Below, piece by piece: positions 2,800-63,560 of a stretch of DNA of 64,000 nucleotides. The DNA comes from an uncultured Muribaculaceae bacterium (GTDB taxonomy: Bacteria > Bacteroidota > Bacteroidia > Bacteroidales > UBA932), in NCBI GenBank assembly GCA_964475015.1, contig CAYYVA010000002.1:26221-90220 (forward strand), in the 5' to 3' direction. Under the pieces are notes generated by a model, which was given only the letters and a program-made list of their open reading frames with translations, was not told the origin of the DNA and did no database searches. The translations under genes were made by a program, and so were the position numbers. Positions within the stretch are counted from its first letter, which is position 1, and every line of letters begins with the position of its first letter.

Positions 2800-2869
2800 A
2801 AAAATTGTTTCTTCCCGACAGAATATGCGGGAGAATGGAATCTAATGTGCAACAGAACTGAATTGAGAA

Positions 2870-5151
2870 ATGAGAAGAATATACCTTGCAATAATTGCAT
2901 TGCTTGCACTTTGTGTGCAGGCCGGTGCACAATCATCAGACCCACATATCATAGGCCATGTAATTGACAAGAAGACACAGGAGCATGTGCCATACGTAAC
3001 CATAAGGCTTGTAGGAACCACCCATGTTACCACTACTGATGACACAGGACATTACAAGCTTACCACAATTCCTGATGGAAACTACATGTTTGAGGCCTCT
3101 TCAGTTGGCTACATTACTGCCACACAGTCTGTAACCATAAAGTCAAACTCCACAATAACCGTGAACTTTACCATTGAGGAGGATGCCCTTCTCCTTGAGC
3201 AGGTGGTTGTTACAGGTAACAGGAGCGAGACAAAGAAAAGGCACAGCGCTACCCTTGTGAATGTTGTAAACAGGGAGATATTTGAACTTGTAAGCGCCTC
3301 TTCCCTTGCAGACGGCCTCAATTTCCAGCCGGGTGTAAGAGTTGAGAATGACTGCCAGAACTGCGGTTTTACACAGGTGAGGATTAACGGACTTGACGGC
3401 CACTATTCACAGATTCTGATGAACTCAAAACCGGTATTCTCGGCACTTGCGGGCGTGTATGGACTTGAGCATATCCCTGCAACAATGATTGACCGTGTGG
3501 AGGTGATGAGGGGCGGCGGTTCCGCACTCTTCGGTTCGGTACAATAAACATCATCACCAAGGATCCTGTGACAAACAGCGCTGAGGTAAGCCATACACTC
3601 ACATCAATTGGCATGAGCGGCGCATTGGACAACAATACCACAGCAAATGCCTCTATTGTGAATGACAACGGCAAATCAGGGCTCTTCATCTACGGACAGG
3701 CCCGTGAGAGGGATCACTATGATGATAACGGTGACGGATTTTGCGAGATTGGTACAATCAATGCCAAGACACTTGGAATCAACTCATTCTATAATATTAC
3801 AGACAACTCAAAGATACGTGCGGAGTACAGCACCACAAATGAGTACAGGCGCGGAGGTGACCAGCTTGACGTACCGCCACACCAGGCCCTCATTGCTGAA
3901 CAGACAGACCATAGCATACATGCAGGAAACATTACCTATGATGTATGGTCAAAGGATTACAGGAACAAGTTCAATGTGTATGGTGCTTTGAGGGATACCA
4001 AAAGGGACAGCTATTACGGCAGTAACATGGATCCAAATGCATACGGAAGCACCCATGACCTTGTGGTTGTTGCGGGCGGCCAGTATGTACACAAGTTCAT
4101 CAACCTTTGGTTCATGCCGGCAGAGCTTACCGGAGGAGTTGAGTACAACTACAACTATCTGAATGATGTTACTGTTGGTTATGACCATGATGTAACCCAG
4201 AAGATTAACATCTACTCTGCATTCATGCAGAATGAGTGGCGTACGGACAAATGGGGGTTCCTTGTGGGTGCCCGCATTGACAAGCACTCCCTTATTGACC
4301 ATGCAATTGTATCTCCAAGGGCAAACATCAGGTTCAACCCTTCAAACAAGCTGAACTTCAGGCTCTCATATTCTACAGGATTCCGTGCCCCACAGGCATT
4401 TGACGAAGATTTCCATATTGCAATCGTTGGAGGCGAGAGGGTTGTTACAGTTCTTGCCGATGACCTCAAGCAGGAGAGTTCAAACAGCTTCAGCTTCTCA
4501 ACCGACTGGTACCATACTTTCGGGAATGTGCAGAGCAACATCATGCTGGAGCTCTTCCATACAGATTTGAAGGATGTGTTTACAATCAGGATGCTTGAGG
4601 AATTTGACCAGAAAGGGAACCAGGTACAGGAGCGCTATAACGGTAGCGGTGCAACCGTAACCGGAATGAATCTGGAGGGAAAGGCTGTATTCAGCAAGGC
4701 TTTCATGGCCCAGGCCGGCCTTACATGGCAGCAGAGCCGCTACAAGGAGCCAGCAGAGTGGAGCGAGAACCCTGAGGTGCCTGCAGTAAAGAGGATGTTC
4801 CGCACACCGGACCTCTACGGCTACTTCACAATGCAGTTCACCCCAACCAAGACATTCTCAATGTCACTTACCGGTACATATTCAGGTGAGATGCTCGTTC
4901 AGCACATGGAGAGCTCAGGCACACCAATAGATGTTGCAGTTGAGACACCTTCATTCTTTGATGCGAACCTGAAGATATCCAAGGATTTCAAGATTTTCCC
5001 GGGAGTCGGCTTGCAGATAAACGGCGGATTGATGAACATCTTCAATTCATTCCAGGATGACTTTGACAAGGGAGTTGACCGCGATTCAGGCTACATCTAC
5101 GGCCCTATGATGCCAAGAAGCCTCTACTTCGGTGTAAAACTGAGCCTGTAA
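2870..5151 (+). pseudogene. TonB-dependent receptor (CarboxypepD_reg + plug + barrel) split by a frameshift near 3536-3541
   Basis: ORF 2870..3547 ends ...RGGGSALFGSVQ*. A different frame continues GTINIITKDPVTNSAEV... into ORF 3568..5151. Together they rebuild the conserved plug-end motif GSALxGS..G.INIITK. The C-terminus ends in a barrel-type FGVKLSL. Confidence 0.75.
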
Positions 5152-5163
5152 GCTCATCCATAA

Positions 5164-5709: not shown

Positions 5710-6804
5710 CTAAAGGGTTTTATAGATTCCGCCGGCCACCTCAAAGGAACGGCACTCATTCGTAAACCTCTCCACAATGGAGGCCATTCTCACCTTGTTG
5801 CTGTCTGAGATGAAAATCTGCCCGAAATGGTCACCTGCCACAAGGCTCAACAGATACTCCACGCGCTGCATGTCAAGCTTGTCAAACACATCGTCCAGAA
5901 GAAGGATAGGAGCAACATCGTGCAGGTCTTTCATGATATCAAACTGGGCAAGCTTCAGTGCTACAAGGAAGCTCTTCTGCTGCCCCTGCGAGCCGCACTT
6001 CTTTAGTGGCATCCCGTTAAGGGAAAACTCTATGTCATCCTTATGTACACCCGCAGAGGTAAATTTAAGGAAAGAATCCTTTTCCCGACAATTTTTCAGA
6101 ATCTCATCCAGGGCACCTTCCTGCAAATCAGAAATATACTGCATCTGCACCTCTTCCTTACATCCGCTCAGGGCAGCGTAATACCCCTTGACCTTCTCCA
6201 GAAGCCCTTTGCAGAGCTCATCCCTTTTCCTGAAAATGTAATCTGCATGAACGGACATCTGGAAATCGATTGTATCAAGAAGTTCCCATGAAATGGAAAG
6301 CATCTTGAGCAGCTTGTTCCTCTGCATCAGGAGCTGGTTATATGACTGCATCCTCTTGAGATACTCCTTGTCTATCTGTGAGAGAATCAGCGTAAGGAAC
6401 TTCCTTCTCTCCTCCCCCGAACCGTTCACAAGCACGGTGTCAGCAGGAGATACCATAACAATAGGATAAAGTCCGATATGTTCTGAAATCCTCTTGTAGG
6501 CCTTGGTATTCTTCTTGACGGTCTTCTCACCCTCCCTCTTCACTCCAATGCTGATGGAATCCTCCGTATTATCATCAAGCATGTATGAACCGTTCAATGC
6601 TGCCGCATCCTCACCGAACTTGAAAGTATAGGCATCGGTGCTTGAGAAGAAGCTCTTGGTCATGGAAAGGTAATAGATGGCATCCAGCAGATTGGTCTTC
6701 CCCTCCCCGTTATTGCCGGAAATGCAGTTGATCTTCCTGGAAAAATCCAGATGAGTCTCAGATATATTCTTGAAATTATTTACAGATATCCTCTTCAAAT
6801 ACAT
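5710..6804 (-). CDS. recF: DNA replication/repair protein RecF
   Basis: Start chosen at MYLKRISVNNFKN. Walker A is GNNGEGKTNLLDAIYY and the signature region is GSQGQQKSF..LLLDDVFDKLD. A TATATTTG box at 6812-6819 (minus) lies just upstream, so the longer ORF-track start at 6885 is unlikely. Confidence 0.9.
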   Translation of the reverse strand: MYLKRISVNNFKNISETHLDFSRKINCISGNNGEGKTNLLDAIYYLSMTKSFFSSTDAYTFKFGEDAAALNGSYMLDDNTEDSISIGVKREGEKTVKKNTKAYKRISEHIGLYPIVMVSPADTVLVNGSGEERRKFLTLILSQIDKEYLKRMQSYNQLLMQRNKLLKMLSISWELLDTIDFQMSVHADYIFRKRDELCKGLLEKVKGYYAALSGCKEEVQMQYISDLQEGALDEILKNCREKDSFLKFTSAGVHKDDIEFSLNGMPLKKCGSQGQQKSFLVALKLAQFDIMKDLHDVAPILLLDDVFDKLDMQRVEYLLSLVAGDHFGQIFISDSNKVRMASIVERFTNECRSFEVAGGIYKTL

Positions 6805-13112: not shown

Positions 13113-13146
13113 AAAACCGGGCTTGAAACAGTCCGGTTTTTTTTGT
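13113..13146 (+). terminator. rho-independent terminator
   Basis: aaaaccgggc...gtccggtttt followed by a T-run. Confidence 0.6.
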
Positions 13147-13362
13147 TTCAGGCAGTTGGTCCGGGTGGATAATTTACTCTCAGGCGATAATGCCGGGGAG
13201 GGAAAAAAGGGAAAATTTGTCGGGAGTAGGAAAATGGGACATTTCAGACAACTATTTGACAAAATTTAGTGTTATAAATGCAGATGTACGGCAAAGTTTG
13301 TGCATAAAATTCATTAACTTTATACCCGTTATTTTCCAATAAAAATATAGGAGACAACATAT

Positions 13363-14604: not shown

Positions 14605-16356
14605 ATGAGTACCACAGGAAAAGTTACAGGCATCATTGCCAACCTGGTTACAGTGGAGGTGAATGGTCCTGTTGCACAGAATGAGATATGCTACATAAAG
14701 CTTGGCGACACCAGGCTTATGGCAGAGGTCATAAAGGTGAACGGCAAGTCCGCTTCCGTTCAGGTTTATGAGAGTACCCGTGGCGTAAGGAAAGGGAACG
14801 ATGTGGAGTTTATGGGCTACATGCTTGAGGCTACACTTGGCCCGGGCCTCCTTTCCAGCAACTACGACGGTCTGCAGAACAACCTCTCAACCATGACAGG
14901 AGTATTCCTGCAGAGGGGTGAATATACATCTCCTATAGACATGGAGAAGGAGTGGGAGTTCTCCCCTATCGCCAAGGCTGGTGACAAGGTTGTTGCAGCT
15001 GACTGGCTGGGTGAGGTAAAGGAGGGTTGGCTTCCTCATAAGATTATGGTTCCTTTCAGCTTCAAGGGTGAATATACAGTAAAATCTGTAGTGCCGCAGG
15101 GAAGCTATAAGGCTTCAGAGACAATTGCAGTTGTAACTGATGCCGAGGGTGAAGACCATAATGTAACCATGGTACAGAAATGGCCTGTAAAGGTTGCAAT
15201 TGGAGGATACAGGGAGAAACCAAGGCCATACAGGATTATGGAGACAGGTGTAAGGTGCATTGACACCCTCAATCCAATGGCTGAGGGTGGTACAGGCTTC
15301 ATTCCAGGACCTTTCGGATGCGGCAAGACAGTTCTCCAGCACGCAATTGCAAAACAGGGCGAGGCAGATGTAATCATCATGGCAGCCTGCGGTGAGCGTG
15401 CGAATGAGGTTGTGGAGATTTTTGCCGAGTTCCCTGAGCTTATTGATGCCAGGACTGGACGCAAGTTGAGCGAGCGTACAACAATCATCTGCAACACATC
15501 AAACATGCCTGTTGCAGCCCGTGAGGCTTCTGTATATACTGCAATGACTATTGGTGAGTACTACAGGGCAATGGGCCTCAAGGTGCTTCTCCTTGCAGAT
15601 TCAACTTCCCGATGGGCACAGGCACTCAGGGAGATGAGTAACCGTATGGAGGAGCTTCCGGGAGCAGACGCATTCCCTGTTGACCTCCCTGCAATCATCT
15701 CTAACTTCTACGCAAGGGCAGGCATTGTAACCCTGAACAACGGGGAGACAGGATCAGTTACCTTCATAGGAACCGTATCCCCTGCGGGCGGTAACCTTAA
15801 GGAGCCTGTTACAGAATCAACCAAGAAGGCAGCAAGATGCTTCTACGCCTTGAGCCAGAACCGTGCGGACCGCAAGAGATACCCTGCAGTTGACCCAATA
15901 GATTCATACTCAAAATACCTTGAATATCCGGAGATTGCAGAATACCTCAATTCAAAGGTGGACCCTCAGTGGGTTGAAAAGGTTAACAAAGCTAAGAACT
16001 ATATCCTCAGGGGCAAGGAGGCTTACGAGCAGATAAACATCCTCGGTGATGACGGTGTGCCTATGGAGTACCACAACAGATACTGGAAGAGCGAGCTCAT
16101 AGACTTCATCATCCTCCAGCAGGATGCATTTGATGCAATTGACAGCTCTACCCCTATGGAGCGCCAGGAGTTCATGCTCAACAAGGTACTTGAGGTTTGT
16201 GACGCACCTGTTGACTTTGACAGCTTTGAGGAGTGCAGCGCACACTACAAGAATGTGATTAACATAATGCGCCAGATGAACTACTCGGAGTTCAGGAGCG
16301 CAGACTTTGAAAAATATCTTGAGCAACTAAATAAAGTGACAACCCATGACAACTAA
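14605..16356 (+). CDS. atpA: V-type ATP synthase subunit A
   Basis: Start at MSTTGKVTGI, just after the upstream stop at 14600. Walker A is GPFGCGKTV. Confidence 0.9.
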   Translation: MSTTGKVTGIIANLVTVEVNGPVAQNEICYIKLGDTRLMAEVIKVNGKSASVQVYESTRGVRKGNDVEFMGYMLEATLGPGLLSSNYDGLQNNLSTMTGVFLQRGEYTSPIDMEKEWEFSPIAKAGDKVVAADWLGEVKEGWLPHKIMVPFSFKGEYTVKSVVPQGSYKASETIAVVTDAEGEDHNVTMVQKWPVKVAIGGYREKPRPYRIMETGVRCIDTLNPMAEGGTGFIPGPFGCGKTVLQHAIAKQGEADVIIMAACGERANEVVEIFAEFPELIDARTGRKLSERTTIICNTSNMPVAAREASVYTAMTIGEYYRAMGLKVLLLADSTSRWAQALREMSNRMEELPGADAFPVDLPAIISNFYARAGIVTLNNGETGSVTFIGTVSPAGGNLKEPVTESTKKAARCFYALSQNRADRKRYPAVDPIDSYSKYLEYPEIAEYLNSKVDPQWVEKVNKAKNYILRGKEAYEQINILGDDGVPMEYHNRYWKSELIDFIILQQDAFDAIDSSTPMERQEFMLNKVLEVCDAPVDFDSFEECSAHYKNVINIMRQMNYSEFRSADFEKYLEQLNKVTTHDN

Positions 16357-17668
16357 AGCATTTCAAAGAATATACACCCAGTTGGAGGCCATCACCAAGG
16401 CTACAGTGGCATTGAAGGCACAGGGTGTATCCAACGATGAGCTTGCTACCGTAGATGGAAGGTTGGCTCAGGTTGTAAAGATTAAGGGAGACCTTGTAAC
16501 CCTGCAGGTATTTTCAGGTACAGAGGGTATCCCTACAGACTCTGAAGTGATCTTCTTTGGCGAGGCCCCATCACTCCATGTAAGTGAGCAGCTGGCAGGA
16601 AGATTCTTCAACGCATACGGAGAGCCTATAGACAACGGCCCTGCGGTGGACGGTGAAAAGAGGTTCATCGGAGGTCCGAGCGTTAACCCATACAGGAGAA
16701 AGCAGCCTTCACAGCTTATTCCTACCGGAATTGCAGGAATTGACCTTAACAATACACTGGTTTCCGGCCAGAAGATCCCTTTCTTTGCAAACGCAGACCA
16801 GCCATACAACCAGGTGATGGCAAATGTGGCACTCAGGGCTGATGTAGACAAAATTATCCTTGGCGGAATGGGACTTACAAATGATGACTACCTCTACTTC
16901 AAGCAGATGTTTGAGAATGCAGGTGCCCTTAACAAGATCATCAGCTTTGTGAACACCACAGAGCAGCCTCCTGTAGAGCGCCTCCTTATCCCGGACATGG
17001 CCCTTACAGCGGCTGAGTATTTTGCAGTGGACAAGAATGAGAAGGTGCTTGTGCTCCTTACAGACATGACCCTCTACGCAGATGCCCTCTCAATTGTGAG
17101 CAACCGTATGGACCAGATCCCTTCAAAGGACTCTATGCCCGGCTCCCTCTACTCAGACCTTGCAAAAATCTACGAGAAGGCTGTACAGCTTCCCGACGGG
17201 GGTTCAATCACCATCATAGCTGTGACAACCCTGAACGACGGAGACATCACCCACGCCATTCCGGACAACACCGGATACATCACAGAGGGGCAGCTCTTCC
17301 TCAGGACAGATACAGATACAGGAAAGGTAATCATTGACCCGTTCCGTTCACTCTCACGTCTGAAACAGCTGGTAATAGGCAAGCAGACAAGGGAAGACCA
17401 CGGCCAGGTGATGAACACAGGTGTACGCCTCTACGCAGATGCGGCCAACGCCAAGACAAAGCTGGAGAACGGTTTTGACCTGAGCGACTATGACCTCCGC
17501 TGCCTTGACTACGCAAAGGACTACTCAAACAAGCTCCTTGCAATTGACGTGAACATAAAGATAGACCAGATGCTGGATACAGCCTGGGACCTCTTTGGCA
17601 AATACTTCAAGCCTGAAGAGCTTGGAATCAAACAGAACCTTGTTGACAAATACTGGAAAGGCAACTGA
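16346..17668 (+). CDS. atpB: V-type ATP synthase subunit B
   Basis: 440 aa of the non-catalytic B subunit family. It overlaps the end of atpA. Confidence 0.9.
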   Translation: MTTKAFQRIYTQLEAITKATVALKAQGVSNDELATVDGRLAQVVKIKGDLVTLQVFSGTEGIPTDSEVIFFGEAPSLHVSEQLAGRFFNAYGEPIDNGPAVDGEKRFIGGPSVNPYRRKQPSQLIPTGIAGIDLNNTLVSGQKIPFFANADQPYNQVMANVALRADVDKIILGGMGLTNDDYLYFKQMFENAGALNKIISFVNTTEQPPVERLLIPDMALTAAEYFAVDKNEKVLVLLTDMTLYADALSIVSNRMDQIPSKDSMPGSLYSDLAKIYEKAVQLPDGGSITIIAVTTLNDGDITHAIPDNTGYITEGQLFLRTDTDTGKVIIDPFRSLSRLKQLVIGKQTREDHGQVMNTGVRLYADAANAKTKLENGFDLSDYDLRCLDYAKDYSNKLLAIDVNIKIDQMLDTAWDLFGKYFKPEELGIKQNLVDKYWKGN

Positions 17669-20059: not shown

Positions 20060-20117
20060 AGCTCCCGATGATTTGTCGGGAAGAAAAAATAAGATTTATA
20101 ACAATTTAAAATTTTAA

Positions 20118-20584: not shown

Positions 20585-20711
20585 CGTTGTCCTTTTTTAC
20601 AAAAGGCTGAAAGATAAGACCTTAGAAAAAACAGGAGTGATGGATGACCTTCACTCCTGTTTTTTAATTATCACATTATGAGGTTATTGTAAAAAAGGAC
20701 AACGTAAAAAA
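20585..20711. repeat. repeat pair A: 18-bp inverted repeat cgttgtccttttttacaa / ttgtaaaaaaggacaacg flanking a bidirectional terminator
   Basis: Arms at 20585-20602 and 20687-20704; the right copy extends to 20720. It belongs to the same family as 31081-31215. Confidence 0.85.
20626..20665. terminator. bidirectional rho-independent terminator
   Basis: A-run, stem acaggagtga / tcactcctgt, then a T-run. It lies between the convergent atpK and S24-like genes. Confidence 0.7.
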
Positions 20712-24735: not shown

Positions 24736-24755
24736 GGATTACAATCAATTGTATG

Positions 24756-24763
24756 CAAATATA
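24756..24763 (-). promoter_or_regulatory. candidate internal -7 box TATATTTG between btuB-like and the NTase gene
   Basis: The minus strand reads TATATTTG, 20 nt upstream of the ATG at 24735. Confidence 0.35.
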
Positions 24764-24770
24764 GTAACAA

Positions 24771-26840: not shown

Positions 26841-26853
26841 GATTCTGATCAAA

Positions 26854-28883: not shown

Positions 28884-28896
28884 CTGATATGAATTG

Positions 28897-31032: not shown

Positions 31033-31040
31033 TTGCAATG

Positions 31041-31780: not shown

Positions 31781-31791
31781 AATTTATCGGG

Positions 31792-34750: not shown

Positions 34751-34770
34751 TCTGGTTTTGCAGAATTTTA

Positions 34771-35817: not shown

Positions 35818-35829
35818 ACAATAATCACG

Positions 35830-36645: not shown

Positions 36646-36653
36646 CTGAACCT

Positions 36654-39260: not shown

Positions 39261-39277
39261 ATAAATTCTGTTTTGCA

Positions 39278-39285
39278 TATCTTTG
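39278..39285 (+). promoter_or_regulatory. -7 box TATCTTTG
   Basis: 6 nt upstream of the ATG at 39292, which would give a near-leaderless mRNA. Confidence 0.3.
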
Positions 39286-39291
39286 CGTATT

Positions 39292-52354: not shown

Positions 52355-53938
52355 ATGAAAGAAGTTGAGATAATTTTCCCTGCAAGACACAACCCTTCTG
52401 AAAAGGATATTGTTGCAGCGTGCGAGAAGAGCTTGCGTGTGCGTCCGGGCACAGTCATAAGCCATGAGGTGCGCAAAAGGTCCCTTGATGCCCGCGGCGG
52501 GGAAATCAAATACAGATACAGGGTAAACGTATCCCTCAGGGGCGAAGCCCCAATTGAGCCATACAGGCTCCTGCCGTTCAGGGATGTGAAGGAGGCCGAA
52601 CCGGTAATTATTGTAGGGTGCGGCCCGGCAGGGCTTTTCGCCGCCCTCAAGCTCCTGCAGCTCGGTCTCAAGCCTATAATCCTGGAAAGGGGGAAGGATG
52701 TCCACCAGCGCAAGTTTGACATGGCCAAGCTCTCAAAGGACCAGATTGTGAACCCCAACTCAAACTACTGCTTTGGGGAGGGCGGCGCCGGCACATTCTC
52801 AGACGGAAAACTCTACACCCGCTCCACAAAGAAAGGGGACATAAGGGAGATTCTCAACCTGTTCGTCCATTTTGGAGCAGATCCCGCAATACTCATAGAA
52901 TCCCACGCCCACATCGGGAGTGACAAGCTTCCCCGTGTGATAGAAAATATGCGCAACAGCGTCATAGAACATGGCGGTGAGGTCCATTTCAATTCCCATG
53001 TAGTGGATTTTGTACAGACTACGGCCGGCTGGGATGCAGTTGTGGAAGAAGTCAATCTTCCCGATGAAGATACACGGGAAAATCTGTCGGGAAGAAAAAT
53101 ATACTCTGCAAAGAACATTATCCTTGCCACAGGGCACTCCGCAAGGGACATATATGAACTGTTCAATGCCAAGGGGTGGACAATAGAGCCGAAAGGGTTT
53201 GCCCTTGGCGTGAGGGTTGAGCATCCGCAGTCACTCATAAATAACATACAGTACCACGGCAAATACCAGCCATACCTCCCTGCTGCAGAATATTCACTTG
53301 TAACACAGGTAGATGGAAGAGGCGTTTTCTCATTCTGCATGTGCCCTGGAGGAATCCTGGTACCTGCTGCAACTTCAGAGGGTGAAATGGTCCTCAATGG
53401 AATGAGCAACTCAATGCGAAACTCAAAATGGGCAAACGCAGGTGTTGTTGTACAGATTAACCCGGAGGATGTTCCTGAATTCGCGGAACACGGTCCGCTT
53501 CAGGTGCTCCGTTTCCAGGAATCTGTTGAAAGGAAGATGTACAGTTTCAGCAACAGCATAAAGGCACCGGCCCAAAGGATGGAGGACTTCTCAAGAGGCA
53601 TTGTTTCCAAAGACCTTCCTGAAACATCATACAAGCCCGGTACAATATCAGCACCTCTGCATGAACTGCTTCCCCCATTTGTGGCACAGAGGCTCCAGAA
53701 GGCATTCCCTGAGTTCAACAAGAAGATGAGGGGATATTTCACCAACAAGGCACTTCTCCTTGCAGTAGAATCCCGCACCTCCTCACCGGTGAGGATACCG
53801 AGGGACAAGGAAACATTGCAACACCTTTCCCTTTCTGGAATTTACCCATGCGGTGAGGGAGCAGGTTACGCTGGAGGAATAGTCTCCTCTGCAATGGACG
53901 GAATCAACTGTGCCATGAAGATATATGAAAACAAATGA
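52355..53938 (+). CDS. FAD-dependent oxidoreductase (COG2509-like)
   Basis: 527 aa with the dinucleotide fold IIVGCGPAGLFAA and GEGGAGTFSDGKL. Confidence 0.7.
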   Translation: MKEVEIIFPARHNPSEKDIVAACEKSLRVRPGTVISHEVRKRSLDARGGEIKYRYRVNVSLRGEAPIEPYRLLPFRDVKEAEPVIIVGCGPAGLFAALKLLQLGLKPIILERGKDVHQRKFDMAKLSKDQIVNPNSNYCFGEGGAGTFSDGKLYTRSTKKGDIREILNLFVHFGADPAILIESHAHIGSDKLPRVIENMRNSVIEHGGEVHFNSHVVDFVQTTAGWDAVVEEVNLPDEDTRENLSGRKIYSAKNIILATGHSARDIYELFNAKGWTIEPKGFALGVRVEHPQSLINNIQYHGKYQPYLPAAEYSLVTQVDGRGVFSFCMCPGGILVPAATSEGEMVLNGMSNSMRNSKWANAGVVVQINPEDVPEFAEHGPLQVLRFQESVERKMYSFSNSIKAPAQRMEDFSRGIVSKDLPETSYKPGTISAPLHELLPPFVAQRLQKAFPEFNKKMRGYFTNKALLLAVESRTSSPVRIPRDKETLQHLSLSGIYPCGEGAGYAGGIVSSAMDGINCAMKIYENK

Positions 53939-53966: not shown

Positions 53967-55256
53967 TTATATCACTTCTTCGCAGATCTCCCCAATCTTG
54001 TTCTTGTCGTAAGGCCTCTCAACCCGTATGTAGTTGCCGGTATAGCCGTACATCATGCCCCCTTTCTGGGTTGATTCAAAGAGTACCTGCTGTGTCGTTC
54101 CCTTGTGGCGGGAAACATATTCTTCATGCAGCTGGTCTGAAAGCGCGGTAAGGGCCTCCACTCTGGCTGTCTTGGTTGCCTCATGCACCTGGTTTGGCAT
54201 TGCTGCTGCAGGGGTATTTGCCCGTCGGGAATAAGGGAATACATGAATGAATGCGGGCTTGATTGTCTCCTTGAGGAAAGTGTAGCATTTCTGGAACTCC
54301 TCATCCGTCTCGCCTGGAAAGCCTACTATCACATCAATACCAAAGAAAACATCCCCCATAATGCGGCGTACCATGGCAATCTTCTCTGCAAACATGGTAG
54401 TATTGTAGCGGCGGCGCATCACCTTAAGCACCTCATCCGAACCGCACTGGAGCGGAATATGGAAATGGTTCTGGAACTTGGTGCCGCTGGCAATCCACTC
54501 GATGATATCCTCCCTGAGCAGGTTAGGCTCAATTGATGAAATCCTGTAGCGCTCTATTCCCGGCACCTCATTGAGAGCCTTGAGCAGATCAAGGAAATCC
54601 TCTCCCGTAGTGCGTCCGAAATCACCTGTATTCACACCTGTGAGGACAACCTCCTTTATACCTTTTGCCGCAATTGCCTCTGCTTCCTTTACCAATGTGA
54701 CAATCGGGAGGTTACGGCTCTTGCCCCTGGCAAGGGGAATTGTACAATAAGAACAATGGTAGTTACAGCCGTCCTGCACCTTCAGGAACGAGCGGGTACG
54801 CTCTCCATGCGAAAAGGCAGGGAAAATAGTCTCCACCTCATTGATGGCACAGGAATAAGACCTGGCTGTCCCAAGTTTTGAAGGAATTTCACTCACCAGC
54901 TGGAATACATCTCCCTTGCGGTCTGCACCCACTACAAGGTCAACCCCCTCTATCTCCATAATCTCCTGAGGCTTCAGCTGTGCATAACAGCCTGTAACCG
55001 CAATTACCGCATCCGGATTCTGCTTGTGCAGCTTGCGGATTGCCTGGCGGCACTTCTTGTCTGCATGCTCCGTTACGCTGCAGGTATTGATTACATATAT
55101 GTCTGCCGGCTTGCTCTGTGCAACCCTTTCGTAACCGTTGTCTATGAACTGCTGGGCTATTGTAGAGGTTTCAGAGAAGTTAAGCTTGCAACCTAATGTT
55201 ACAAAGGCTATGGTCTTTACGTTGTCCTTTTGTATATTTAATTGATTTTCAGCCAT
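53967..55256 (-). CDS. mtaB: tRNA t6A37 methylthiotransferase
   Basis: 429 aa with a UPF0004 N-domain (TLGCKLNFSE), the radical SAM motif CNYHCSYC and a TRAM-like C-terminus. Confidence 0.8.
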   Translation of the reverse strand: MAENQLNIQKDNVKTIAFVTLGCKLNFSETSTIAQQFIDNGYERVAQSKPADIYVINTCSVTEHADKKCRQAIRKLHKQNPDAVIAVTGCYAQLKPQEIMEIEGVDLVVGADRKGDVFQLVSEIPSKLGTARSYSCAINEVETIFPAFSHGERTRSFLKVQDGCNYHCSYCTIPLARGKSRNLPIVTLVKEAEAIAAKGIKEVVLTGVNTGDFGRTTGEDFLDLLKALNEVPGIERYRISSIEPNLLREDIIEWIASGTKFQNHFHIPLQCGSDEVLKVMRRRYNTTMFAEKIAMVRRIMGDVFFGIDVIVGFPGETDEEFQKCYTFLKETIKPAFIHVFPYSRRANTPAAAMPNQVHEATKTARVEALTALSDQLHEEYVSRHKGTTQQVLFESTQKGGMMYGYTGNYIRVERPYDKNKIGEICEEVI

Positions 55257-56405: not shown

Positions 56406-57197
56406 ATGGGAAAAATTACTTTTTTAGGTACAGGAACATCACAGGGGATACCGATGATTGGGTGCAGCTGCAAGGTGTGCACATCCTCCGACCCCAAGGA
56501 CAACAGGCTCAGGACTTCCGCCCTCGTTGAGCACAACGGGTTCAGGATACTCATAGACTGTGGCCCCGATTTCCGCCAGCAGATGCTCCGTGAGAACATC
56601 TCAGACCTGGATGCGGTAATCCTCACCCACCAGCACAAGGACCACACCGGAGGCCTTGATGACATAAGGGCATTCAACTACTTCAGGAAGGAGGCTTTCC
56701 CAATCTATGCGGAGGAGCTTGTACAGGAATCCCTGAAGATGGAATATTACTACGCCTTCTCTGAGTACAAATACCCCGGAGTGCCGGACTACATCCTCCA
56801 CACAATAGATGAAAAGCCATTCACTATAACCAAAAAGCTTCCCGACAATTCTACGGCAAGCCTGGAAATCACCCCAATAAGGGTATTCCACTACAAGCTC
56901 CCCATCCTGGGCTTCAGGATTGGGGACATGGCCTACATCACAGACGGAAGCAGCATCCCTGAAGGGGAACTTGCGAAGCTGAAAGGAGTGGAACTCTTCA
57001 TAATCAATACAGTGAGGCATGAAAAGCACATTTCCCACTTTTCACTTCCGGAAGCCCTTGAGGTGATAAGAAAAGTTGGAGCTCCACGCAGCTACCTTAC
57101 CCACATGTCCCACCAGCTTGGGACACATGAGGAGCTGTGTGCCACCCTCCCTAAAAAAGTTGAGCCCGCCTACGACGGACTCACACTTGAATTCTAG
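56406..57197 (+). CDS. MBL-fold metallo-hydrolase (PhnP-like)
   Basis: FLGTGTSQGIP...C.C..C... and LTHQHKDH. Confidence 0.75.
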   Translation: MGKITFLGTGTSQGIPMIGCSCKVCTSSDPKDNRLRTSALVEHNGFRILIDCGPDFRQQMLRENISDLDAVILTHQHKDHTGGLDDIRAFNYFRKEAFPIYAEELVQESLKMEYYYAFSEYKYPGVPDYILHTIDEKPFTITKKLPDNSTASLEITPIRVFHYKLPILGFRIGDMAYITDGSSIPEGELAKLKGVELFIINTVRHEKHISHFSLPEALEVIRKVGAPRSYLTHMSHQLGTHEELCATLPKKVEPAYDGLTLEF

Positions 57198-57208: not shown

Positions 57209-58480
57209 TCACCCTATAACACCGCTGCCTATCATCTCCTCCTCACCAGGGGTGTACCATGCTGCAAACTGCCCTGCTGAAATACCCCTCTGCGGCTTGT
57301 CAAAAATAATGTATAGGCCGTCCTCCTCCCTGTAGAGGGTAGCCTGCTGGAGCGGCTGCCGGTAGCGTATCCTCACCATATATCTGCGCCTCTCCCCTAC
57401 CTGCATCTCAATGTCCTCCCTTATCCAGTGGATTTCAGGGTTTTCAATCTTTATCCCCCTGCGGTACAGGCCGGGATGTGAATGACCTTCACCCACATAT
57501 ATCACATTCTGCTCAATGTCAATTGAAATGATGAAGATTGATTCTCTATGGCCTCCTATGTTAAGTCCCTTTCTCTGGCCTATGGTATAGAATTGGGCAC
57601 CGGTATGTTTACCAATCACCTTTCCGTCTGCAGGGGTATATTTGTGCGGAGCGGCCAGGGCAGAGAGTTCTCCGAGTGAATAATCCTGGTAATCAGTCCC
57701 CAGCTTGCCTGAAACCGCCACCACATTGCCTTCAAGGTCTGCAACGCACTCCCCTGCCTTAAGTGCTGCAGCTGTATATGGCGCCCTCTCTTCTTCAGTA
57801 GCAAAGATCTCCACAACCTTCCCCTCCTTGGGCTTGAGCTTCTGCTGGAGGAAAACCGGCAGATCCACCTTCCCCACAAAGCAGATTCCCTGGGAATCCT
57901 TCTTCTCCGCACTTGGCAGGCCAGCCTCCTTGGCAAGGCGTCTCACTTCAGGCTTGTCAATGTCACCTATCGGGAAGAGGGCCTTTGAAAGCTGCTCCTG
58001 GGAGAGCTGGCAGAGGAAATAGCTCTGGTCCTTGTTCTTGTCATCACCTGCTAGTATCCTGTAAATCTTCTTCCCATCCCCGTCCACAAACTCATCCTTC
58101 TTGCAATAATGACCTGTAGCCACATAATCTACATTGAGCTCAAGCGCGCACTTGAGGAATGCATCAAACTTTATCTCCCTGTTACACAGCACATCAGGAT
58201 TTGGGGTACGCCCCTTCTCATACTCTGAGAACATATAATCCACAACCCTCTGGCGGTAAATGTCACTCAAATCCACAAAATGGAACGGTATCCCTATCTT
58301 CTTTGCAACCATCTCAGCAACAACCTTGTCCTCTTCCCACTCGCAATCGCCGTGTAGGGTACCGGTTGTATCGTGCCAGTTCTGCATGAAAAGGGCAACC
58401 ACATCATGCCCGGCCCTCTTGAGCAGAAGGGCGGCCACACTTGAATCAACGCCACCTGAAAGTCCAACTGCTATTCTCAT
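57209..58480 (-). CDS. mnmA: tRNA 2-thiouridine(34) synthase
   Basis: MRIAVGLSGGVDSSVAA (PP-loop)...YTIGQRKGL. At 423 aa it appears to carry an internal insertion. Confidence 0.85.
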   Translation of the reverse strand: MRIAVGLSGGVDSSVAALLLKRAGHDVVALFMQNWHDTTGTLHGDCEWEEDKVVAEMVAKKIGIPFHFVDLSDIYRQRVVDYMFSEYEKGRTPNPDVLCNREIKFDAFLKCALELNVDYVATGHYCKKDEFVDGDGKKIYRILAGDDKNKDQSYFLCQLSQEQLSKALFPIGDIDKPEVRRLAKEAGLPSAEKKDSQGICFVGKVDLPVFLQQKLKPKEGKVVEIFATEEERAPYTAAALKAGECVADLEGNVVAVSGKLGTDYQDYSLGELSALAAPHKYTPADGKVIGKHTGAQFYTIGQRKGLNIGGHRESIFIISIDIEQNVIYVGEGHSHPGLYRRGIKIENPEIHWIREDIEMQVGERRRYMVRIRYRQPLQQATLYREEDGLYIIFDKPQRGISAGQFAAWYTPGEEEMIGSGVIG

Positions 58481-58482
58481 AT

Positions 58483-59496
58483 CTATCTTATCTTTAATCT
58501 GTTCAACGCTGCCTGATACTCCCTTGCATTCCTGTTATGCTCAGAGAGTGTACGGGCAAACTTATGTGTGCCGTCCATATTGGAATTTGCACAGAAATAG
58601 AGGAAATTGTGCTTCTGGTAATCCAATACTGCATCTATCCCCTTTACCCCCGGAATTGTAATGGGCCCGGGAGGCAGACCTGCATGCTTGTAGGTGTTGT
58701 ACGGAGAATCCACCTCCAGATGCCTGAACAGTATCCTCCTGATTGAAGGGTCTCCAAGCGCAAACTTCACTGTAGGGTCCGCATCCAGCTTCATCCCCCT
58801 CTTCAGCCTGTTCATATAGACACCTGCCACCTTTGGCATCTCAGGAGTATAGTTTGTCTCCTCACACACAATTGAAGCGAGGATTGAAACCTCCACAGGT
58901 GAAAGCCCTATGGAATCGGCCTTGGCCCTCCTCTCACCGTTCCAGAACTTGTCATACTCCTTCTTCATCCTTCCAACCAGCTTCTCAGGGGTAATTGTCC
59001 AATATACCTCGTATGTATTGGGGATGAACATTGCCATGAAAGTCTCCTTCCCAAATCCGTTCTCCTCCCATACCTCAGGCTTGGAAAGATAATCCTTAAA
59101 TTCAGCTGAATCAGCCGCAAGCCTCCTTCCCAGTATTCCCGACAGCCTCTCAAGGCTCCTGATATTCCCGCTGAGGGTAAGCATCATGGGAGCCTCCCAG
59201 CCATGCTGCAGCATCCTCACAATATCCCTGTTCCTCTTGTCAGGGGTAATCTGATACCTTCCGGGCTTGAAGTTCTTCTCAAGGGAGGCCCTTTGGGCAA
59301 CCTTTTCAAATGACTCCATATTCCCAACGGCCTTTGAAAGGGAATCCAGCATTGCTCCGTAGGTGGAACCGGGCGGGATATATACCACACTCCTCACCCC
59401 CACACTTTTCCTGTACTCATCCAGATAGCGGGGGACAAATATTGCGGCTGCACCGCAAACTGCACCTACAAGTATCAAAAATACAATCTTCTTCAT
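58483..59496 (-). CDS. mltG: endolytic transglycosylase MltG
   Basis: 337 aa with an N-terminal TM segment and a YceG-like domain (ASIVCEETNY..., SPYNTYKHAGLPPGPI). Confidence 0.85.
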   Translation of the reverse strand: MKKIVFLILVGAVCGAAAIFVPRYLDEYRKSVGVRSVVYIPPGSTYGAMLDSLSKAVGNMESFEKVAQRASLEKNFKPGRYQITPDKRNRDIVRMLQHGWEAPMMLTLSGNIRSLERLSGILGRRLAADSAEFKDYLSKPEVWEENGFGKETFMAMFIPNTYEVYWTITPEKLVGRMKKEYDKFWNGERRAKADSIGLSPVEVSILASIVCEETNYTPEMPKVAGVYMNRLKRGMKLDADPTVKFALGDPSIRRILFRHLEVDSPYNTYKHAGLPPGPITIPGVKGIDAVLDYQKHNFLYFCANSNMDGTHKFARTLSEHNRNAREYQAALNRLKIR

Positions 59497-59498: not shown

Positions 59499-60368
59499 TC
59501 AGCGTAACTTGATTTCTGAACCAATAGCCAGTCCTTTAGCCTTTATACCAGGATTGAGCCTGTAAAGTTCATCCAGAGTGATTCCATTGTTCCTGGCTAT
59601 TGAATAGAGGGTATCCCCCTTCTTCACCACATGCACTGCCTGGGGCTCAGGGAGGGTTCCCTGAGGGGCCTTCACCGCTTCATCAAGTGTCTTTACAGTG
59701 TTCTGCGGGGTCTCTCCGGTAAATTCATAATACTTGAAGTTGGCCTTGCGGGCCTTCTCCGCTGCCCTGGCAGCCTTGCGCTCCAGCTTCTTCCTCTTCT
59801 TCTCTATCTTTGCAGCCTTCTTTTCCTGTCGGGAAGAAGACTTGAGCTGCTTGAAGGCCTCTCCGGTATCATATTTATACAGCTGGTACTCCTCTATAAT
59901 ATCAATCAAAAGCTTTGCATACTTTGGATTGGTGGCATATCCTGCCGCCTTGAGCCCATGGGCCCAACCTTTATAGTCTGTAATTGGAAGGTCAAACAGG
60001 GAATTGTACCTGCTGCCGGAAATCAGGAAATATGAATGGTCTGTAAATGAATCAATAGGGTCATTGTACTTTCTGAAGCATTCATTCTTCTTGTCATCAT
60101 CATGCTTGAATTTCTTTCCTATCCAACCGTTGTGGCACTTTATCCCAAAATGGTTGTTCGCCTTCCTGGCAAGGGTTGAATTTCCGTCGCCAGATTCCAG
60201 ACATGCCTGTGCAAGGGTTATGCTGGCAGGAATCTTGTGCCTGTGCATCTGCCTGATGGCAACATCCCTGTATTTCTCTATATATTGCTTCCTTGTAAGG
60301 TTCTGGGCACTTGCTGCAAATGCAATGCACAGCAAAATAAACTGGATTAATGCAACTCTTGTTCTCAT
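59499..60368 (-). CDS. glucosaminidase-domain protein with a C-terminal LysM
   Basis: IPASITLAQACLESG...HFGIKC, a Lys-rich linker, and LysM (HVVKKGDTLYSIA...). Confidence 0.75.
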   Translation of the reverse strand: MRTRVALIQFILLCIAFAASAQNLTRKQYIEKYRDVAIRQMHRHKIPASITLAQACLESGDGNSTLARKANNHFGIKCHNGWIGKKFKHDDDKKNECFRKYNDPIDSFTDHSYFLISGSRYNSLFDLPITDYKGWAHGLKAAGYATNPKYAKLLIDIIEEYQLYKYDTGEAFKQLKSSSRQEKKAAKIEKKRKKLERKAARAAEKARKANFKYYEFTGETPQNTVKTLDEAVKAPQGTLPEPQAVHVVKKGDTLYSIARNNGITLDELYRLNPGIKAKGLAIGSEIKLR

Positions 60369-60886: not shown

Positions 60887-60894
60887 TACCTTTG
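60887..60894 (+). promoter_or_regulatory. -7 box TACCTTTG for the SRP RNA
   Basis: It ends about 5 nt before the predicted 5' end of the RNA. Confidence 0.45.
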
Positions 60895-60898
60895 TGCC

Positions 60899-60996
60899 CG
60901 GGTAAGTCATATACGACCAGCTCCTGCAAAACTCCCCCAGGGCCGGAAGGCAGCAAGGGTATGCGGTTGTAGCGGTGCGATATATCAAGCTTACCC
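60899..60996 (+). ncRNA. ffs: signal recognition particle RNA (small/4.5S type)
   Basis: Terminal helix cgggtaag / cttaccc. The conserved domain IV core is CAGGGCCGGAAGGCAGCAAGGGT. A T7 run follows. Confidence 0.75.
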
Positions 60997-61001
60997 TTTT
61001 T

Positions 61002-62582
61002 TTATTTCCCCTTGCCAAGCTCTTCAACAGCCCGCAATATCTCCCTGTCATTGCCGTTGATGAACTCAATGAAGTTGTTGAAGCTATATACTGAACGGAT
61101 TATCAGCCCCTTGAAGTATCTCCTTATTTCATTCCCTGAAATGGCCATATCACCCTCATCAGGTTCAACACCCTTATCCCTGCAATAGGCCAGGAATGCA
61201 TCAATTTCACTGTCGGGAACTTCATATTTTGCCGCAAATTCCTTGAATGTGCCGTATTTCTTCAGTATGGAGAGCCTGTGCCTGTCTGAATACTCATTCA
61301 TATAGTCTGTAAGGAGCCCTTTCCTGAGAATCTCTCCATAGAACGGGGTATAATATGTGGTATCCTGCGGTATAAATATGTCAGGCATGATGCCTCCGCC
61401 GCCATATACCGGCCTGCCGAGCTTCCTTGTCATGAATACAAGAGAATCTGCAAGGTGTATGCTGTCACGGCTGAAATTCTCACCCCTGTTGAAACGCTCC
61501 ACCATCTGCTTGTAATATTCATCCTTCTTCCCCTGCTCGTACGGGCTCTGGATAACCCTGCCGCTTGGGGTATGGTACCTTGAGACTGTAAGCCTAAGGG
61601 CTGAACCGTCCTGAAGGGGGAGCTGCTGCTGCACAAGCCCCTTCCCGAAAGATCTTCTTCCAATTATCAATCCCCTGTCCCAGTCCTGGATCGCACCCGA
61701 TACAATCTCACTTGCCGAAGCGGAGTTTTCATCTATGAGCACTGCTACAGGGACATTCTTGAAGAGGCCGTTCCCGTTTGCATACTCATCCATCCTCTTC
61801 ACGGTACGCCCCTCGGTATATACAATCAGCTGACCCTGCTCCAGGAACTCGTTCGCTATCTGGATTGCAGCTATAAGGTAGCCGCCTGGATTCCCCCTCA
61901 GGTCAAGGATTATACCTTTTGGAACAACTTCCAGCTCCCTTAGTGCCATGAGCATCTCCTTGTAGGATGTGGCTGCAAATCTTGTAAGGCGCAGATATAC
62001 TATATCCTTCCCGATTGTATAATACGCATCAAGGCTGTTCAAGGGAATCTTGTCCCTGGTAATGAGGAACACAAGAGGTGAGGTTTCCCCTTTCCTGATC
62101 ACTTCCACCTCCACTTTTGTCCCCTTGGGGCCCCTGAGATATTTATGTACCCTCTCTATTGTAAGTCCTGTTCCGGAAATGAGTTCCCCGTCAACCTTGT
62201 TTATCTTGTCACCTGCCCTGATGCCCACCTTTTCAGACGGGCCGCCTGGAATTGTAGAGTTGATTGTGAGAGTATCATTTATAAGTGCAAACTCCACCCC
62301 TATTCCGTCAAAGTTCCCCTCCAAAGGCTCATTCATGGCCTTCATGTCCTTCGCAGAAATGTATGACGAATGCGGGTCAAGCTCCTTCATTATGGCAACA
62401 AGGGCATTGTCTGTAAGCTTGTCCATATTGGCTGTATCAAGGTACAGCCTGTTTATATAGAACAGTGTCTGCCCCAGCTTGTTTGCCTGCAATGATATGT
62501 CATTCTGCGCGAATGTGGAACCGGCTGCTGAAAAAATGGGAACCAGCAGCAGAAAAAGCTTCATGAGGGTGTTCTTGAACAT
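61002..62582 (-). CDS. S41 family C-terminal processing peptidase
   Basis: 526 aa with a PDZ domain, then LDLRGNPGG and SASASEI. Confidence 0.8.
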   Translation of the reverse strand: MFKNTLMKLFLLLVPIFSAAGSTFAQNDISLQANKLGQTLFYINRLYLDTANMDKLTDNALVAIMKELDPHSSYISAKDMKAMNEPLEGNFDGIGVEFALINDTLTINSTIPGGPSEKVGIRAGDKINKVDGELISGTGLTIERVHKYLRGPKGTKVEVEVIRKGETSPLVFLITRDKIPLNSLDAYYTIGKDIVYLRLTRFAATSYKEMLMALRELEVVPKGIILDLRGNPGGYLIAAIQIANEFLEQGQLIVYTEGRTVKRMDEYANGNGLFKNVPVAVLIDENSASASEIVSGAIQDWDRGLIIGRRSFGKGLVQQQLPLQDGSALRLTVSRYHTPSGRVIQSPYEQGKKDEYYKQMVERFNRGENFSRDSIHLADSLVFMTRKLGRPVYGGGGIMPDIFIPQDTTYYTPFYGEILRKGLLTDYMNEYSDRHRLSILKKYGTFKEFAAKYEVPDSEIDAFLAYCRDKGVEPDEGDMAISGNEIRRYFKGLIIRSVYSFNNFIEFINGNDREILRAVEELGKGK

Positions 62583-62588
62583 TTTGTA

Positions 62589-63560
62589 TCAGTCTTTAAA
62601 TTTCTCCAGTTCTATTTCAAATTTCATTCCTTCCTTTGCAAGATATGACTCAGGGAACACGGCCCTGGCCTCTTCAAGCATTGTATCCAGAGACTTGTAC
62701 CTTGAAGAGTAGTGTCCGAGTACGAGCTTTTTGGCACCCGCCTCTAATGCACAACAAGCGGCAGCTTCAGAAGTTGAATGGAATGTTGTTTTTGCAAGCC
62801 CGGAATATTCGTTTGTATAGGTTGAATCGTGGTATATGAGGTCTGCCCCCTTTACCCAACCGGCAAGCCTCTTGAAAGGGAGTGTATCTGTACAGTAGGC
62901 AAATGACCTCGGCTTGTAGGGGAGATATGTGAAGTCCCTGTTAAGTAGTGTCTGCTCATATTCAACCTCCCTCCCCTCTTCATCTGTGAAAGTGGCCGGG
63001 CGTACAAGGGCTTTCCCCTCCTTCAGGCGGGCTATTTCATACAATGAAAGCTTGTATGGCTCTATAAGATGCTTGTGTACATTAAGTTGCGGCTCCTTCT
63101 CCCTGAAGAGGAATCCGTATGTCTCCCCCCTGTGCACAAGCGGGAAGGCAAATGCCTCCACCTGTCGGGAATCATATATGAGCTGTGGTTCCCTGCATTT
63201 GATGGGGTGGAAATTTATGTTGTATTTTATCCCCTCCCCAAACTGCTCCATGAAGAACTCCAGAATCTTGCTGAATCCCTCCGGAGCATAGATGTTCAGG
63301 TCTCCCTGTCTTCCTCCCATAGCCATGGTGGAAAGGAGCCCGAAGAGGCCGAACAGATGGTCCCCATGAAGGTGTGAAATGAATATGTGGTCTATCTTGC
63401 CGAACGACACCCCGTACTTGCGCATCTGCATCTGCGCACCTTCTCCGCAGTCTATCAAGAACAAGCGCTCACGAACCGTAAGGATGTGAGCGCTTGGGTA
63501 TCTGTTGGCAGTGGGGAGGGCCGAAGCCGTCCCCATTGTCAGAAATGAAAATTCCATCAA
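62589..63560 (-). CDS. rnz: ribonuclease Z
   Basis: FLTMGTASALPT..., ISHLHGDHLFG. Confidence 0.85.
   Translation of the reverse strand: MMEFSFLTMGTASALPTANRYPSAHILTVRERLFLIDCGEGAQMQMRKYGVSFGKIDHIFISHLHGDHLFGLFGLLSTMAMGGRQGDLNIYAPEGFSKILEFFMEQFGEGIKYNINFHPIKCREPQLIYDSRQVEAFAFPLVHRGETYGFLFREKEPQLNVHKHLIEPYKLSLYEIARLKEGKALVRPATFTDEEGREVEYEQTLLNRDFTYLPYKPRSFAYCTDTLPFKRLAGWVKGADLIYHDSTYTNEYSGLAKTTFHSTSEAAACCALEAGAKKLVLGHYSSRYKSLDTMLEEARAVFPESYLAKEGMKFEIELEKFKD

Follow-up and report, generated by a model that had tools for sequence, protein, structure and literature searches.

What keeps one short DNA word recurring, on both strands and inside genes as well as between them, along the chromosome of a gut bacterium? 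The question is raised by a 64 kb stretch of DNA from an uncultured Bacteroidales bacterium (the whole stretch is called the window below), for which an earlier note had counted 15 copies of the 9-mer TGTCGGGAA, 11 of the 10-mer TGTCGGGAAG and 21 of the 8-mer GTCGGGAA. Recounting against shuffles and Markov models gave the same numbers: TGTCGGGAA occurs 15 times on the two strands compared with 0.42 times in dinucleotide-preserving shuffles (shuffle maximum 3), GTCGGGAA occurs 21 times compared with 1.15 expected, or about once per 3 kb, and TGTCGGGAAG occurs 11 times compared with 0.11 under a third-order Markov model. The coordinates were likewise right, except for the copy placed at 56838, which is really at 56839. 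The oligomer is thus real, but it had been drawn too narrowly. Once the TCGGGA core, a YYR prefix and the variant ATCGGGAAG are included, the window holds 42 copies of YYRTCGGGA (0.66 per kb, about one per 1.5 kb). The earlier note had allowed that a third-order Markov background might absorb the excess; that background predicts 2.2 copies. The word family supplies the top over-represented k-mers of the window at each k from 7 to 11, with enrichments ranging from 19- to 100-fold. Elsewhere YYRTCGGGA is found at 0.080 per kb in other Bacteroidales (1.37 Mb, 79 genome loci), at 0.050 per kb in other metagenome loci (0.64 Mb) and at 0.049 per kb in viral contigs (1.05 Mb); the viral contigs, scanned with CTGTCGGGAAGAAA, served as a background control only (120 loci, chance-like, at most 3 copies each including the seeded match). 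The copies are one lineage-specific, asymmetric DNA word that is read on double-stranded DNA, whatever the transcription and translation of the region.

We derived the anatomy of the word from an alignment of all 34 copies of the TCGGGAA core. Position -3 is a pyrimidine in 33 of the 34 copies, position -2 is a pyrimidine in 33 and position -1 is a purine in 32, so that 30 copies carry the full Y-Y-R prefix. The base that follows the core is G in 25 copies and T in seven. Cores outside the prefix rule lie at 4520-4526 (+; cttTCGGGAAt, which arises by three synonymous differences from the related genome L001), 43988-43994 (+; prefix ATG, within one TGTCGGGAA copy of the earlier note), 61642-61648 (-) and 62008-62014 (-). 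ATCGGGAAG is accordingly counted within the family (10 copies, 0.41 expected). The A-rich 3' flank described in the earlier note is more precisely an R-K-A preference after TCGGGA, that is, AGA or GTA. The full word is therefore YYR-TCGGGA-R-K-A, an asymmetric sequence of 9-12 nt whose commonest form is CTGTCGGGAAGA and whose minor form ends in TCGGGAGTA. In YYR context, TCGGGAG (7 copies, 0.68 expected) and TCGGGAT (5 copies, 0.55 expected) are both enriched. Specificity within the core is sharp: the perfect form is 41-fold enriched, while all other single changes in TCGGGA are found at expectation (19 compared with 17.7), counts that are too small to separate zero excess from the approximately 1.4-fold excess predicted by a pattern of the type seen for the DNA uptake sequences (DUS) of Neisseriaceae and the uptake signal sequences (USS) of Pasteurellaceae. 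When the copies are aligned with their flanks, similarity ends at about 12 nt and no longer repeat body appears; the copies are hence not fragments of a longer repeat. The word contains CG even though CpG is strongly depleted in the window (rho 0.51).

The force that maintains about one copy per 1.5 kb acts on DNA itself. We shuffled synonymous codons within each gene, which preserves both the protein and the codon usage of that gene, and obtained 1.1 +/- 1.1 copies of YYRTCGGGAA in coding DNA compared with 27 observed, and 0.28 copies of TGTCGGGAA compared with 13. As the earlier note had described, copies lie in different frames, on both strands and also between genes; those in coding DNA spread over five to six frame/strand classes and encode many peptides (L-P-D, I-G-K, L-S-G, S-R-R and C-R-E among them), and the suspicion that one repeated protein motif might explain them all does not hold. 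RTCGGGAA is realised at 29 of the 208 peptide sites that could encode it (about 14%). Rare codons are drawn into the word: TCG-GGA pairs take up 13 of 63 serine TCG codons, where 1.6 would be expected, and TCC-CGA pairs take up 6 of 14 arginine CGA codons, where 0.2 would be expected.

Comparison of single genes leads to the same picture (copies are written below as the 9-nt YYRTCGGGA match followed, after a hyphen, by the next three bases). The T-S-R-W peptide of V-ATPase A does not vary among 12 species, and ACT TCC CGA TGG, which carries the antisense copy CCATCGGGA-agt (15607-15615, -), is used only in the window and in L001. Y-S-R-R is conserved in nearly all compared species in a radical-SAM (MiaB-like) gene, with TCC CGA CGR confined to word-bearing genomes (antisense copy CCGTCGGGA-ata, 54222-54230, +). 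In TamB, F-[IVL]-P-D-E-Q-S-G is conserved in all relatives, and the word with CCC GAY is found only in the window and the closer word-bearing relatives L083, L085 and L148 (antisense copy TCGTCGGGA-ata over I-P-D, 47167-47175, +). Where a site of the window differs in L001, the difference can consist of neighbouring synonymous substitutions: in recF the sense copy TTGTCGGGA-aaa (6083-6091, -) reads TGT CGG GAA and L001 has TGC AGG GAA, and in a TonB-dependent receptor ACT TTC GGG compares with ACA TTT GGC. Other differences are amino-acid replacements, L-P-D compared with L-P-S or I-P-S; the antisense copy TCATCGGGA-aga of a nucleotidyltransferase gene (23945-23953, +) covers L-P-D in the window and I-P-S in L001. 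Protein motifs and codon usage are ruled out as the origin of the word by the synonymous shuffles, the frame analysis and the rare-codon counts. A drive by very-short-patch repair was rejected as well, since deamination-type neighbours are not depleted (in YYR context, TTGGGAA 2 copies compared with 1.5 expected and TCAGGAA 4 compared with 2.4) and a drive at one position cannot yield a 40-fold rise over nine constrained positions. These results confirm the word as a real, lineage-specific signal at the DNA level that is maintained against codon bias.

The 42 copies show no polarity. They divide into 23 on the plus and 19 on the minus strand and, relative to genes, into 14 sense, 21 antisense and 7 intergenic copies, so that 35 of 42 lie within genes; a 75% skew would mean about 31:11. 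Orientation is also mixed in each relative's contig. We considered a replication origin near 30.5-31.8 kb that would mask a polar pattern; an early strand switch of the 8-mer near 28 kb vanished with 34 and then 42 copies, and there is no sign of an origin near 31 kb because the long intergenic gap there holds a cobalamin riboswitch. The lack of polarity argues against a word of the Chi type or of the FtsK-orienting polar sequence (KOPS) type. The copies are spaced a little more evenly than random placement would give (coefficient of variation 0.82 compared with 0.98, p = 0.10).

Close inverted pairs, with gaps of 1-24 nt, occur three times, where about one is expected by chance. One pair is intergenic (TCATCGGGA-gct, 20063-20071, -, and TTGTCGGGA-aga, 20073-20081, +); the next lies in a TonB-dependent receptor gene (sense TTGTCGGGA-aga, 26775-26783, -, and antisense CTGTCGGGA-tac, 26808-26816, +). 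The third, in the gene of an FAD-dependent protein, has an antisense left arm (TCATCGGGA-aga, 53059-53067, -) and a sense right arm (CTGTCGGGA-aga, 53084-53092, +), and it is retained within the L083-L086 group of contigs (in L083, L084 and L086) despite changes in the length and sequence of the spacer. The AT-rich segment at 34.75-39.5 kb holds one copy (TTATCGGGA-ata, 36691-36699, +, of the A-form TTATCGGGAAT), and a second lies just outside, between genes at its edge (CTATCGGGA-tga, 34522-34530, -), where about three are expected. The earlier note had reported the word as absent from this segment, which is not the case.

How far does the word extend among relatives? The nearest genome in the species-representative collection is L001, the metagenome-assembled genome (MAG) RGIG4631 from roe deer rectum, which is 91.8% identical over 20 kb and therefore a different species. 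It carries 6 word copies in 21 kb compared with 0.53 expected. Five of 10 window sites are also sites in L001 and five of 6 L001 sites are sites in the window, with neutral retention at 0.52; sharing this close to neutral implies turnover as well as retention. Two neighbouring copies in V-ATPase I are among those conserved in L001, one sense over I-G-K (CTATCGGGA-agc, 18648-18656, +) and one antisense (CTGTCGGGA-aga, 18811-18819, -). The word is also present in the metagenome contigs L083-L086, L100, L143, L147 and L148, whose identity is 81-89% in the FAD-dependent protein and about 75% at the DNA level. The seven with 84-89% identity in this protein have 41-44% GC, carry the word at 0.65 per kb and show the same YYR and RKA flanks. 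Of the 28 window sites that align at about 75% DNA identity, these relatives have a site at 19, at a distance where only about 10% of 9-mers are unchanged. Positions are thus conserved above neutral expectation, and codon alignments agree; a sense copy over I-G-K in TamB (CTATCGGGA-aga, 50297-50305, -) is common to the window, L083 and L085. More distant contigs (L088, L138, the group L091/L093/L101/L139, and L016, labelled Candidatus Egerieousia) hold CTGTCGGGA, a weaker core that shows no constraint at its 3' end; its density there is 0.24-0.46 per kb, about 7 to 22 times the expected value. The peptides are the same, but the word is lacking, in L002 and in about 75 other species of the broad group; the range of the word is a genus- or family-level clade. 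The earlier note's idea of conservation in sister species therefore applies to L001 and to the relatives at about 75% identity, and fails for one genome, L002, which is taken up below. From this one 64 kb syntenic neighbourhood we infer that the word is probably genome-wide; an exact-protein look-up to extend the window's genome returned only Logan contigs of 3.5 kb.

With codon usage controlled for (background z 4.5-6), several other species of the broad group show hyper-abundant, non-polar 7-mers of their own, although most species have none. These words are ATTGGCC in L062 (19 copies, 2.2 expected, z = 11.3), GGAATAT in L073 (19 compared with 2.4, z = 10.7) and in L079 (19 compared with 4.7, z = 6.5), CATTGAC in L050 (25 compared with 4.4, z = 9.8) and AGAGCGG in L012 (19 compared with 2.8, z = 9.6). 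Hyper-abundant words thus seem to recur in the Bacteroidales group, though they are mutually unrelated. A dialect series AT[CT]G[GA] running through L002, L053, L062 and L050 was considered and dropped: ATCGGT in L002 and ATCGGCC in L053 are not outstanding after codon-usage control (z <= 6.7, within or near background), and the remaining words are unrelated. The likeness of CATTGAC in L050 to an MmeI-family site (CRTTGAC) was set aside as coincidence.

The likeliest reading, which we hold tentatively, is that the word is a self tag of the DNA-uptake type and that biased transfer spreads it. In this scheme, a sequence-specific protein would recognise the word and DNA carrying it would gain an advantage in transmission, for which the best-understood precedent is the preferential uptake of self DNA in natural transformation, by DUS in Neisseriaceae and by USS in Pasteurellaceae. 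Mutations that bring a sequence nearer to the word form would enter other cells of the population, by uptake and recombination, at a higher rate, and the word would accumulate wherever the protein code tolerates it and stay in place in descendant genomes. Outer positions would drift as the receptor changes ('dialects'), and the word would decay where the receptor is lost. We favour the self tag because of the enrichment, the force at the DNA level, the absence of polarity, the sharp specificity, the shared positions and the dialect-like drift, from YYRTCGGGA-RKA in the near clade to the sparser CTGTCGGGA, whose 3' end is free, in Egerieousia-like genomes. A more specific proposal, that an uncultured ruminant-gut clade of Bacteroidales preferentially takes up or exchanges DNA carrying YYRTCGGGARKA and that its neighbours possess equivalent but unrelated tags (ATTGGCC, GGAATAT, CATTGAC, AGAGCGG), appears possible but rather doubtful. 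If true, sequence-specific tagging of 'self DNA' would for the first time be known outside Pseudomonadota and cyanobacteria, and its recognition determinant would change rapidly and divide gene flow between gut species that live together.

Several observations weigh against the self tag. The earlier note had likened the word to uptake signals or to a protein-binding word; this likeness stands as far as the statistics of the class are concerned, and finds no counterpart in competence genes within the window, in use at terminators or in L002. This last genome (MAG RGIG9123; 77.5% DNA identity) has a single copy, and none of the seven aligned window sites is a site there. DUS and USS are family-wide, whereas the present word is patchy among close relatives. 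They are also used as inverted repeats in terminators, where about half of their copies sit (bioRxiv 10.1101/2025.10.24.684340), whereas the present word is not used in this way and is enriched only about 2-fold between genes, where 8% of the DNA holds 7 of the 42 sites. A clear intrinsic terminator at about 13115-13145, the one inspected, lacks a copy; none of the three inverted pairs is followed by a T run, and two of the three are intragenic. The shortfall in the AT-rich island is not significant. Genes for competence, pilins or DNA methyltransferases are absent from the 64 kb window. Full-text literature searches returned no report of the word or of uptake sequences in Bacteroidota, in line with the earlier note, which knew of no Bacteroidales precedent. 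Every word-bearing locus examined is syntenic with this one 64 kb region. Finally, if the unrelated 7-mers serve the same function, the recognition determinant is subject to rapid change or to gain and loss, and a mobile determinant would fit this no less well than a conserved uptake receptor would.

Could the word arise without any recognition of DNA, as a side effect of motifs in proteins, of codon usage or base composition, or of mobile-element remnants? Some peptides do recur (L-P-D seven times, I-G-K and L-S-G five times each), but the excess over synonymous shuffles and the Markov model, the use of the rarest codons, the identical peptides of other species that lack the word, the end of similarity at about 12 nt and the CG within the word in CpG-poor DNA leave this account with next to no probability, and composition, protein motifs and repeat elements are excluded as its source. 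A HIP1-like word has a better claim, although we consider it unlikely: the sequence would be the recognition site of a lineage-specific methyltransferase or of some other enzyme of DNA modification or repair (with an asymmetric Type IIG or Type III-like specificity, for instance), its abundance kept by selection for modification, or by a drive linked to it, as proposed for GCGATCGC. The enrichment and the positional conservation match the size reported for HIP1 (PMC5861425); the degenerate Y-Y-R and R-K positions resemble an enzyme recognition sequence; and the patchy presence, with the word in the window clade, none in L002 and unrelated 7-mers in L062, L073/L079, L050 and L012, fits gain and loss in the manner of restriction-modification systems. 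HIP1, however, is palindromic, whereas YYRTCGGGARKA differs from its own reverse complement; methylation alone is no known force for a 40-fold rise, the one known repair drive, very-short-patch repair, acts at a single position and has left no signature here, and the 64 kb window contains no methyltransferase gene. This account may also overlap with the uptake reading, since HIP1 is reported to aid transformation in a methylation-dependent manner (bioRxiv 10.1101/2024.09.10.611283).

Binding sites of an abundant chromosome protein, for nucleoid organisation, condensin loading, replication or repair, placed one per 1-2 kb and each selected individually, would explain the same pattern with a similarly low probability. 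The conservation of positions within the clade well above neutral retention, the slightly even spacing, the retention of the inverted pair of the FAD-dependent protein gene although its spacer varies, and an asymmetric length of 9-12 bp that suits a monomeric DNA-binding domain all speak for such sites. Against them, known nucleoid and segregation sites (parS, matS, Noc, SlmA) number tens per genome and are mostly palindromic. A housekeeping function should not be missing at 77.5% identity, and the 5 of 10 sites shared with L001, no better than neutral, argue against strong selection on each site. Least probable among the recognition-based accounts, and improbable in our view, is a Chi-like recombination hotspot for the lineage's AddAB helicase-nuclease. 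The spacing of GTCGGGAA is Chi-like, the word is asymmetric and G-rich toward its 3' end, and one copy lies in recF. Against this, the orientation of the word is unbiased in the window and mixed in relatives, and the long intergenic gap near 31 kb, which holds a riboswitch, shows no sign of an origin that could mask polarity. The Chi sequence of E. coli is enriched only few-fold, far below the 19- to 100-fold of the word, and AddAB, as a housekeeping enzyme, evolves slowly, but at 77.5% identity the word is already gone. At 9-12 nt with degenerate flanks, the word also exceeds the 5 bp and 8 bp of described Chi sites (PMC2887965). As of 2010, however, no Chi sequence was yet known for Bacteroides AddAB (PMC2887965), which leaves a non-polar Chi a small probability; our literature searches for a Bacteroides Chi sequence found nothing relevant.

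The window itself is ordinary core chromosome, with recF, a methylmalonyl-CoA decarboxylase operon, a V-type ATPase operon, TldD/PmbA, TamB, tsaD, mnmA and a B12-uptake operon behind the cobalamin riboswitch, and the copies not yet located are scattered throughout it. Before the V-ATPase genes, TCGTCGGGA-agc (2013-2021, +) is antisense in an acyl-ACP thioesterase gene, and CTGTCGGGA-aga (2813-2821, -) and TTGTCGGGA-gta (13217-13225, +) are intergenic; V-ATPase B carries CCGTCGGGA-agc in antisense over L-P-D (17191-17199, -). An ABC transporter gene contains CTGTCGGGA-gga in sense (22220-22228, -). The TonB-dependent receptor genes add an antisense TTGTCGGGA-gcc (25274-25282, +) and a sense CTGTCGGGA-agc over L-S-G (25629-25637, -) to the pair given above. 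They are followed by antisense copies in a DUF5074 gene (TCATCGGGA-tta, 27740-27748, +), in the gene at 27927-28964 (TCGTCGGGA-agg, 28453-28461, +) and in a DUF4465 gene (CTGTCGGGA-aga, 30404-30412, +). TTATCGGGA-tga (31784-31792, +) overlaps the start codon of a GNAT gene and TTATCGGGA-agc (33622-33630, -) is intergenic.

To the right of the AT-rich segment, a DUF2400 gene carries a sense copy, CTGTCGGGA-agg (39490-39498, +), and an antisense copy, CCGTCGGGA-gta (39759-39767, -); an M14 peptidase gene carries CCGTCGGGA-tta in antisense (40820-40828, -). Two sense copies lie in one TldD/PmbA gene (CTATCGGGA-agg, 42031-42039, +; TTATCGGGA-aga, 42133-42141, +) and an antisense copy in a second (TCGTCGGGA-gta, 43393-43401, -), followed by sense copies in a Na+/H+ antiporter gene (TCGTCGGGA-ata, 44992-45000, +) and in TamB (CTGTCGGGA-gaa, 48234-48242, -). 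The remaining copies are antisense in a metallo-beta-lactamase-fold gene (TTGTCGGGA-agc, 56840-56848, -), antisense in an mnmA-like gene (CTATCGGGA-aga, 57967-57975, +), sense in a YceG-like gene (CTGTCGGGA-ata, 59137-59145, -) and antisense in the gene at 59499-60368 (CTGTCGGGA-aga, 59826-59834, +), in an S41 peptidase gene (CTGTCGGGA-act, 61210-61218, +) and in the gene at 62589-63560 (CTGTCGGGA-atc, 63162-63170, +).

Other elements were noted along the window. The cobalamin riboswitch (30839-31048, -; 89.7 bits) lies upstream of a minus-strand operon at 20684-30486 that includes the TonB-dependent receptor and DUF4465 genes, and a Bacteroidales small signal recognition particle (SRP) RNA is encoded at 60893-61000 (+; 106 bits). 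An element of about 24 nt, TTGTAAAAAAGGACAACGTAAAAA, is present in five copies, at 20585 (-), 20695 (+), 31087 (-), 31196 (+) and 55220 (-); for its 11-nt core AAAGGACAACG, 0.04 copies are expected. These copies are mostly intergenic, and two divergent pairs, each about 110 bp apart, lie in divergent-promoter regions, one of them adjoining the cobalamin riboswitch. Probably an accessory island, the AT-rich segment at 34750-39500 (GC 35-39%) encodes one Porph_ging-family protein and one CarboxypepD_reg receptor-like protein and has no counterpart in the syntenic region of L003. In one TonB-dependent receptor, a frameshift separates two open reading frames (2870-3547 and 3568-5151, +), the first with CarboxypepD_reg and Plug domains and the second with the beta-barrel; this is either a pseudogene or an assembly error. 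TpA is moderately depleted in the whole window (0.74), and the palindrome TGCAATTGCA is weakly over-represented (four loci, 8 strand counts compared with about 0.9-1.5 expected).

To our knowledge, hyper-abundant words within genes are well known only from Neisseriaceae, Pasteurellaceae and cyanobacteria, and in two of these they mark self DNA for transformation. A further case in Bacteroidales would suggest that dominant and largely uncultured bacteria of the animal gut exchange DNA selectively by sequence, or that they possess some other recognition system acting genome-wide. The word is a lineage marker that could aid the binning of contigs and the flagging of recently acquired DNA, and synonymous sites in word-bearing genomes are not neutral.

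Judged by its statistical behaviour, the word matches the class of hyper-abundant genomic words; likened to known systems on sequence statistics, it cannot be filed under DUS/USS or under HIP1. The DUS of Neisseriaceae (GCCGTCTGAA and its dialects), the USS of Pasteurellaceae (AAGTGCGGT / ACAAGCGGT) and the Bacteroidales word are all asymmetric, 9-12 nt long and present at about one copy per kb; they occur equally on both strands and within genes in several frames, and shape the choice of codons and amino acids. All fall steeply in number at one mismatch and keep their positions among relatives, and the outer positions drift between lineages, in a dialect-like manner for the present word. From perfect to one-mismatch copies, the drop is 92-fold in H. 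influenzae and 82-fold in N. gonorrhoeae (Bakkali 2007, PMC1939737), and that of the present word is at least as steep, on small counts. The systems differ in phylum (Pseudomonadota compared with Bacteroidota) and in sequence, which is unrelated; uptake has been demonstrated for DUS and USS, with the minor pilin ComP as receptor in Neisseria, whereas for the present word uptake is a proposal. HIP1 of cyanobacteria (GCGATCGC), for which a link to horizontal transfer has been proposed, is likewise hyper-abundant (15- to 300-fold) in coding and non-coding DNA and conserved in position beyond neutral expectation, but it is a phylum-wide palindrome with known orphan methyltransferases, whereas the present word is asymmetric and clade-restricted, with no methyltransferase known. 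Chi (GCTGGTGG in E. coli, AGCGG in B. subtilis) shares with the word its species specificity, asymmetry, over-representation, a density of one per few kb and the possibility of intragenic location; Chi sites are shorter (5-8 nt), enriched few-fold and biased to the leading strand, whereas the word is longer, 19- to 100-fold enriched and non-polar. Repetitive extragenic palindromes (REP) and miniature inverted-repeat transposable elements (MITE), in turn, have structured units of more than 20 nt that are mostly intergenic, whereas the Bacteroidales word is about 12 nt long and sits mainly within genes.

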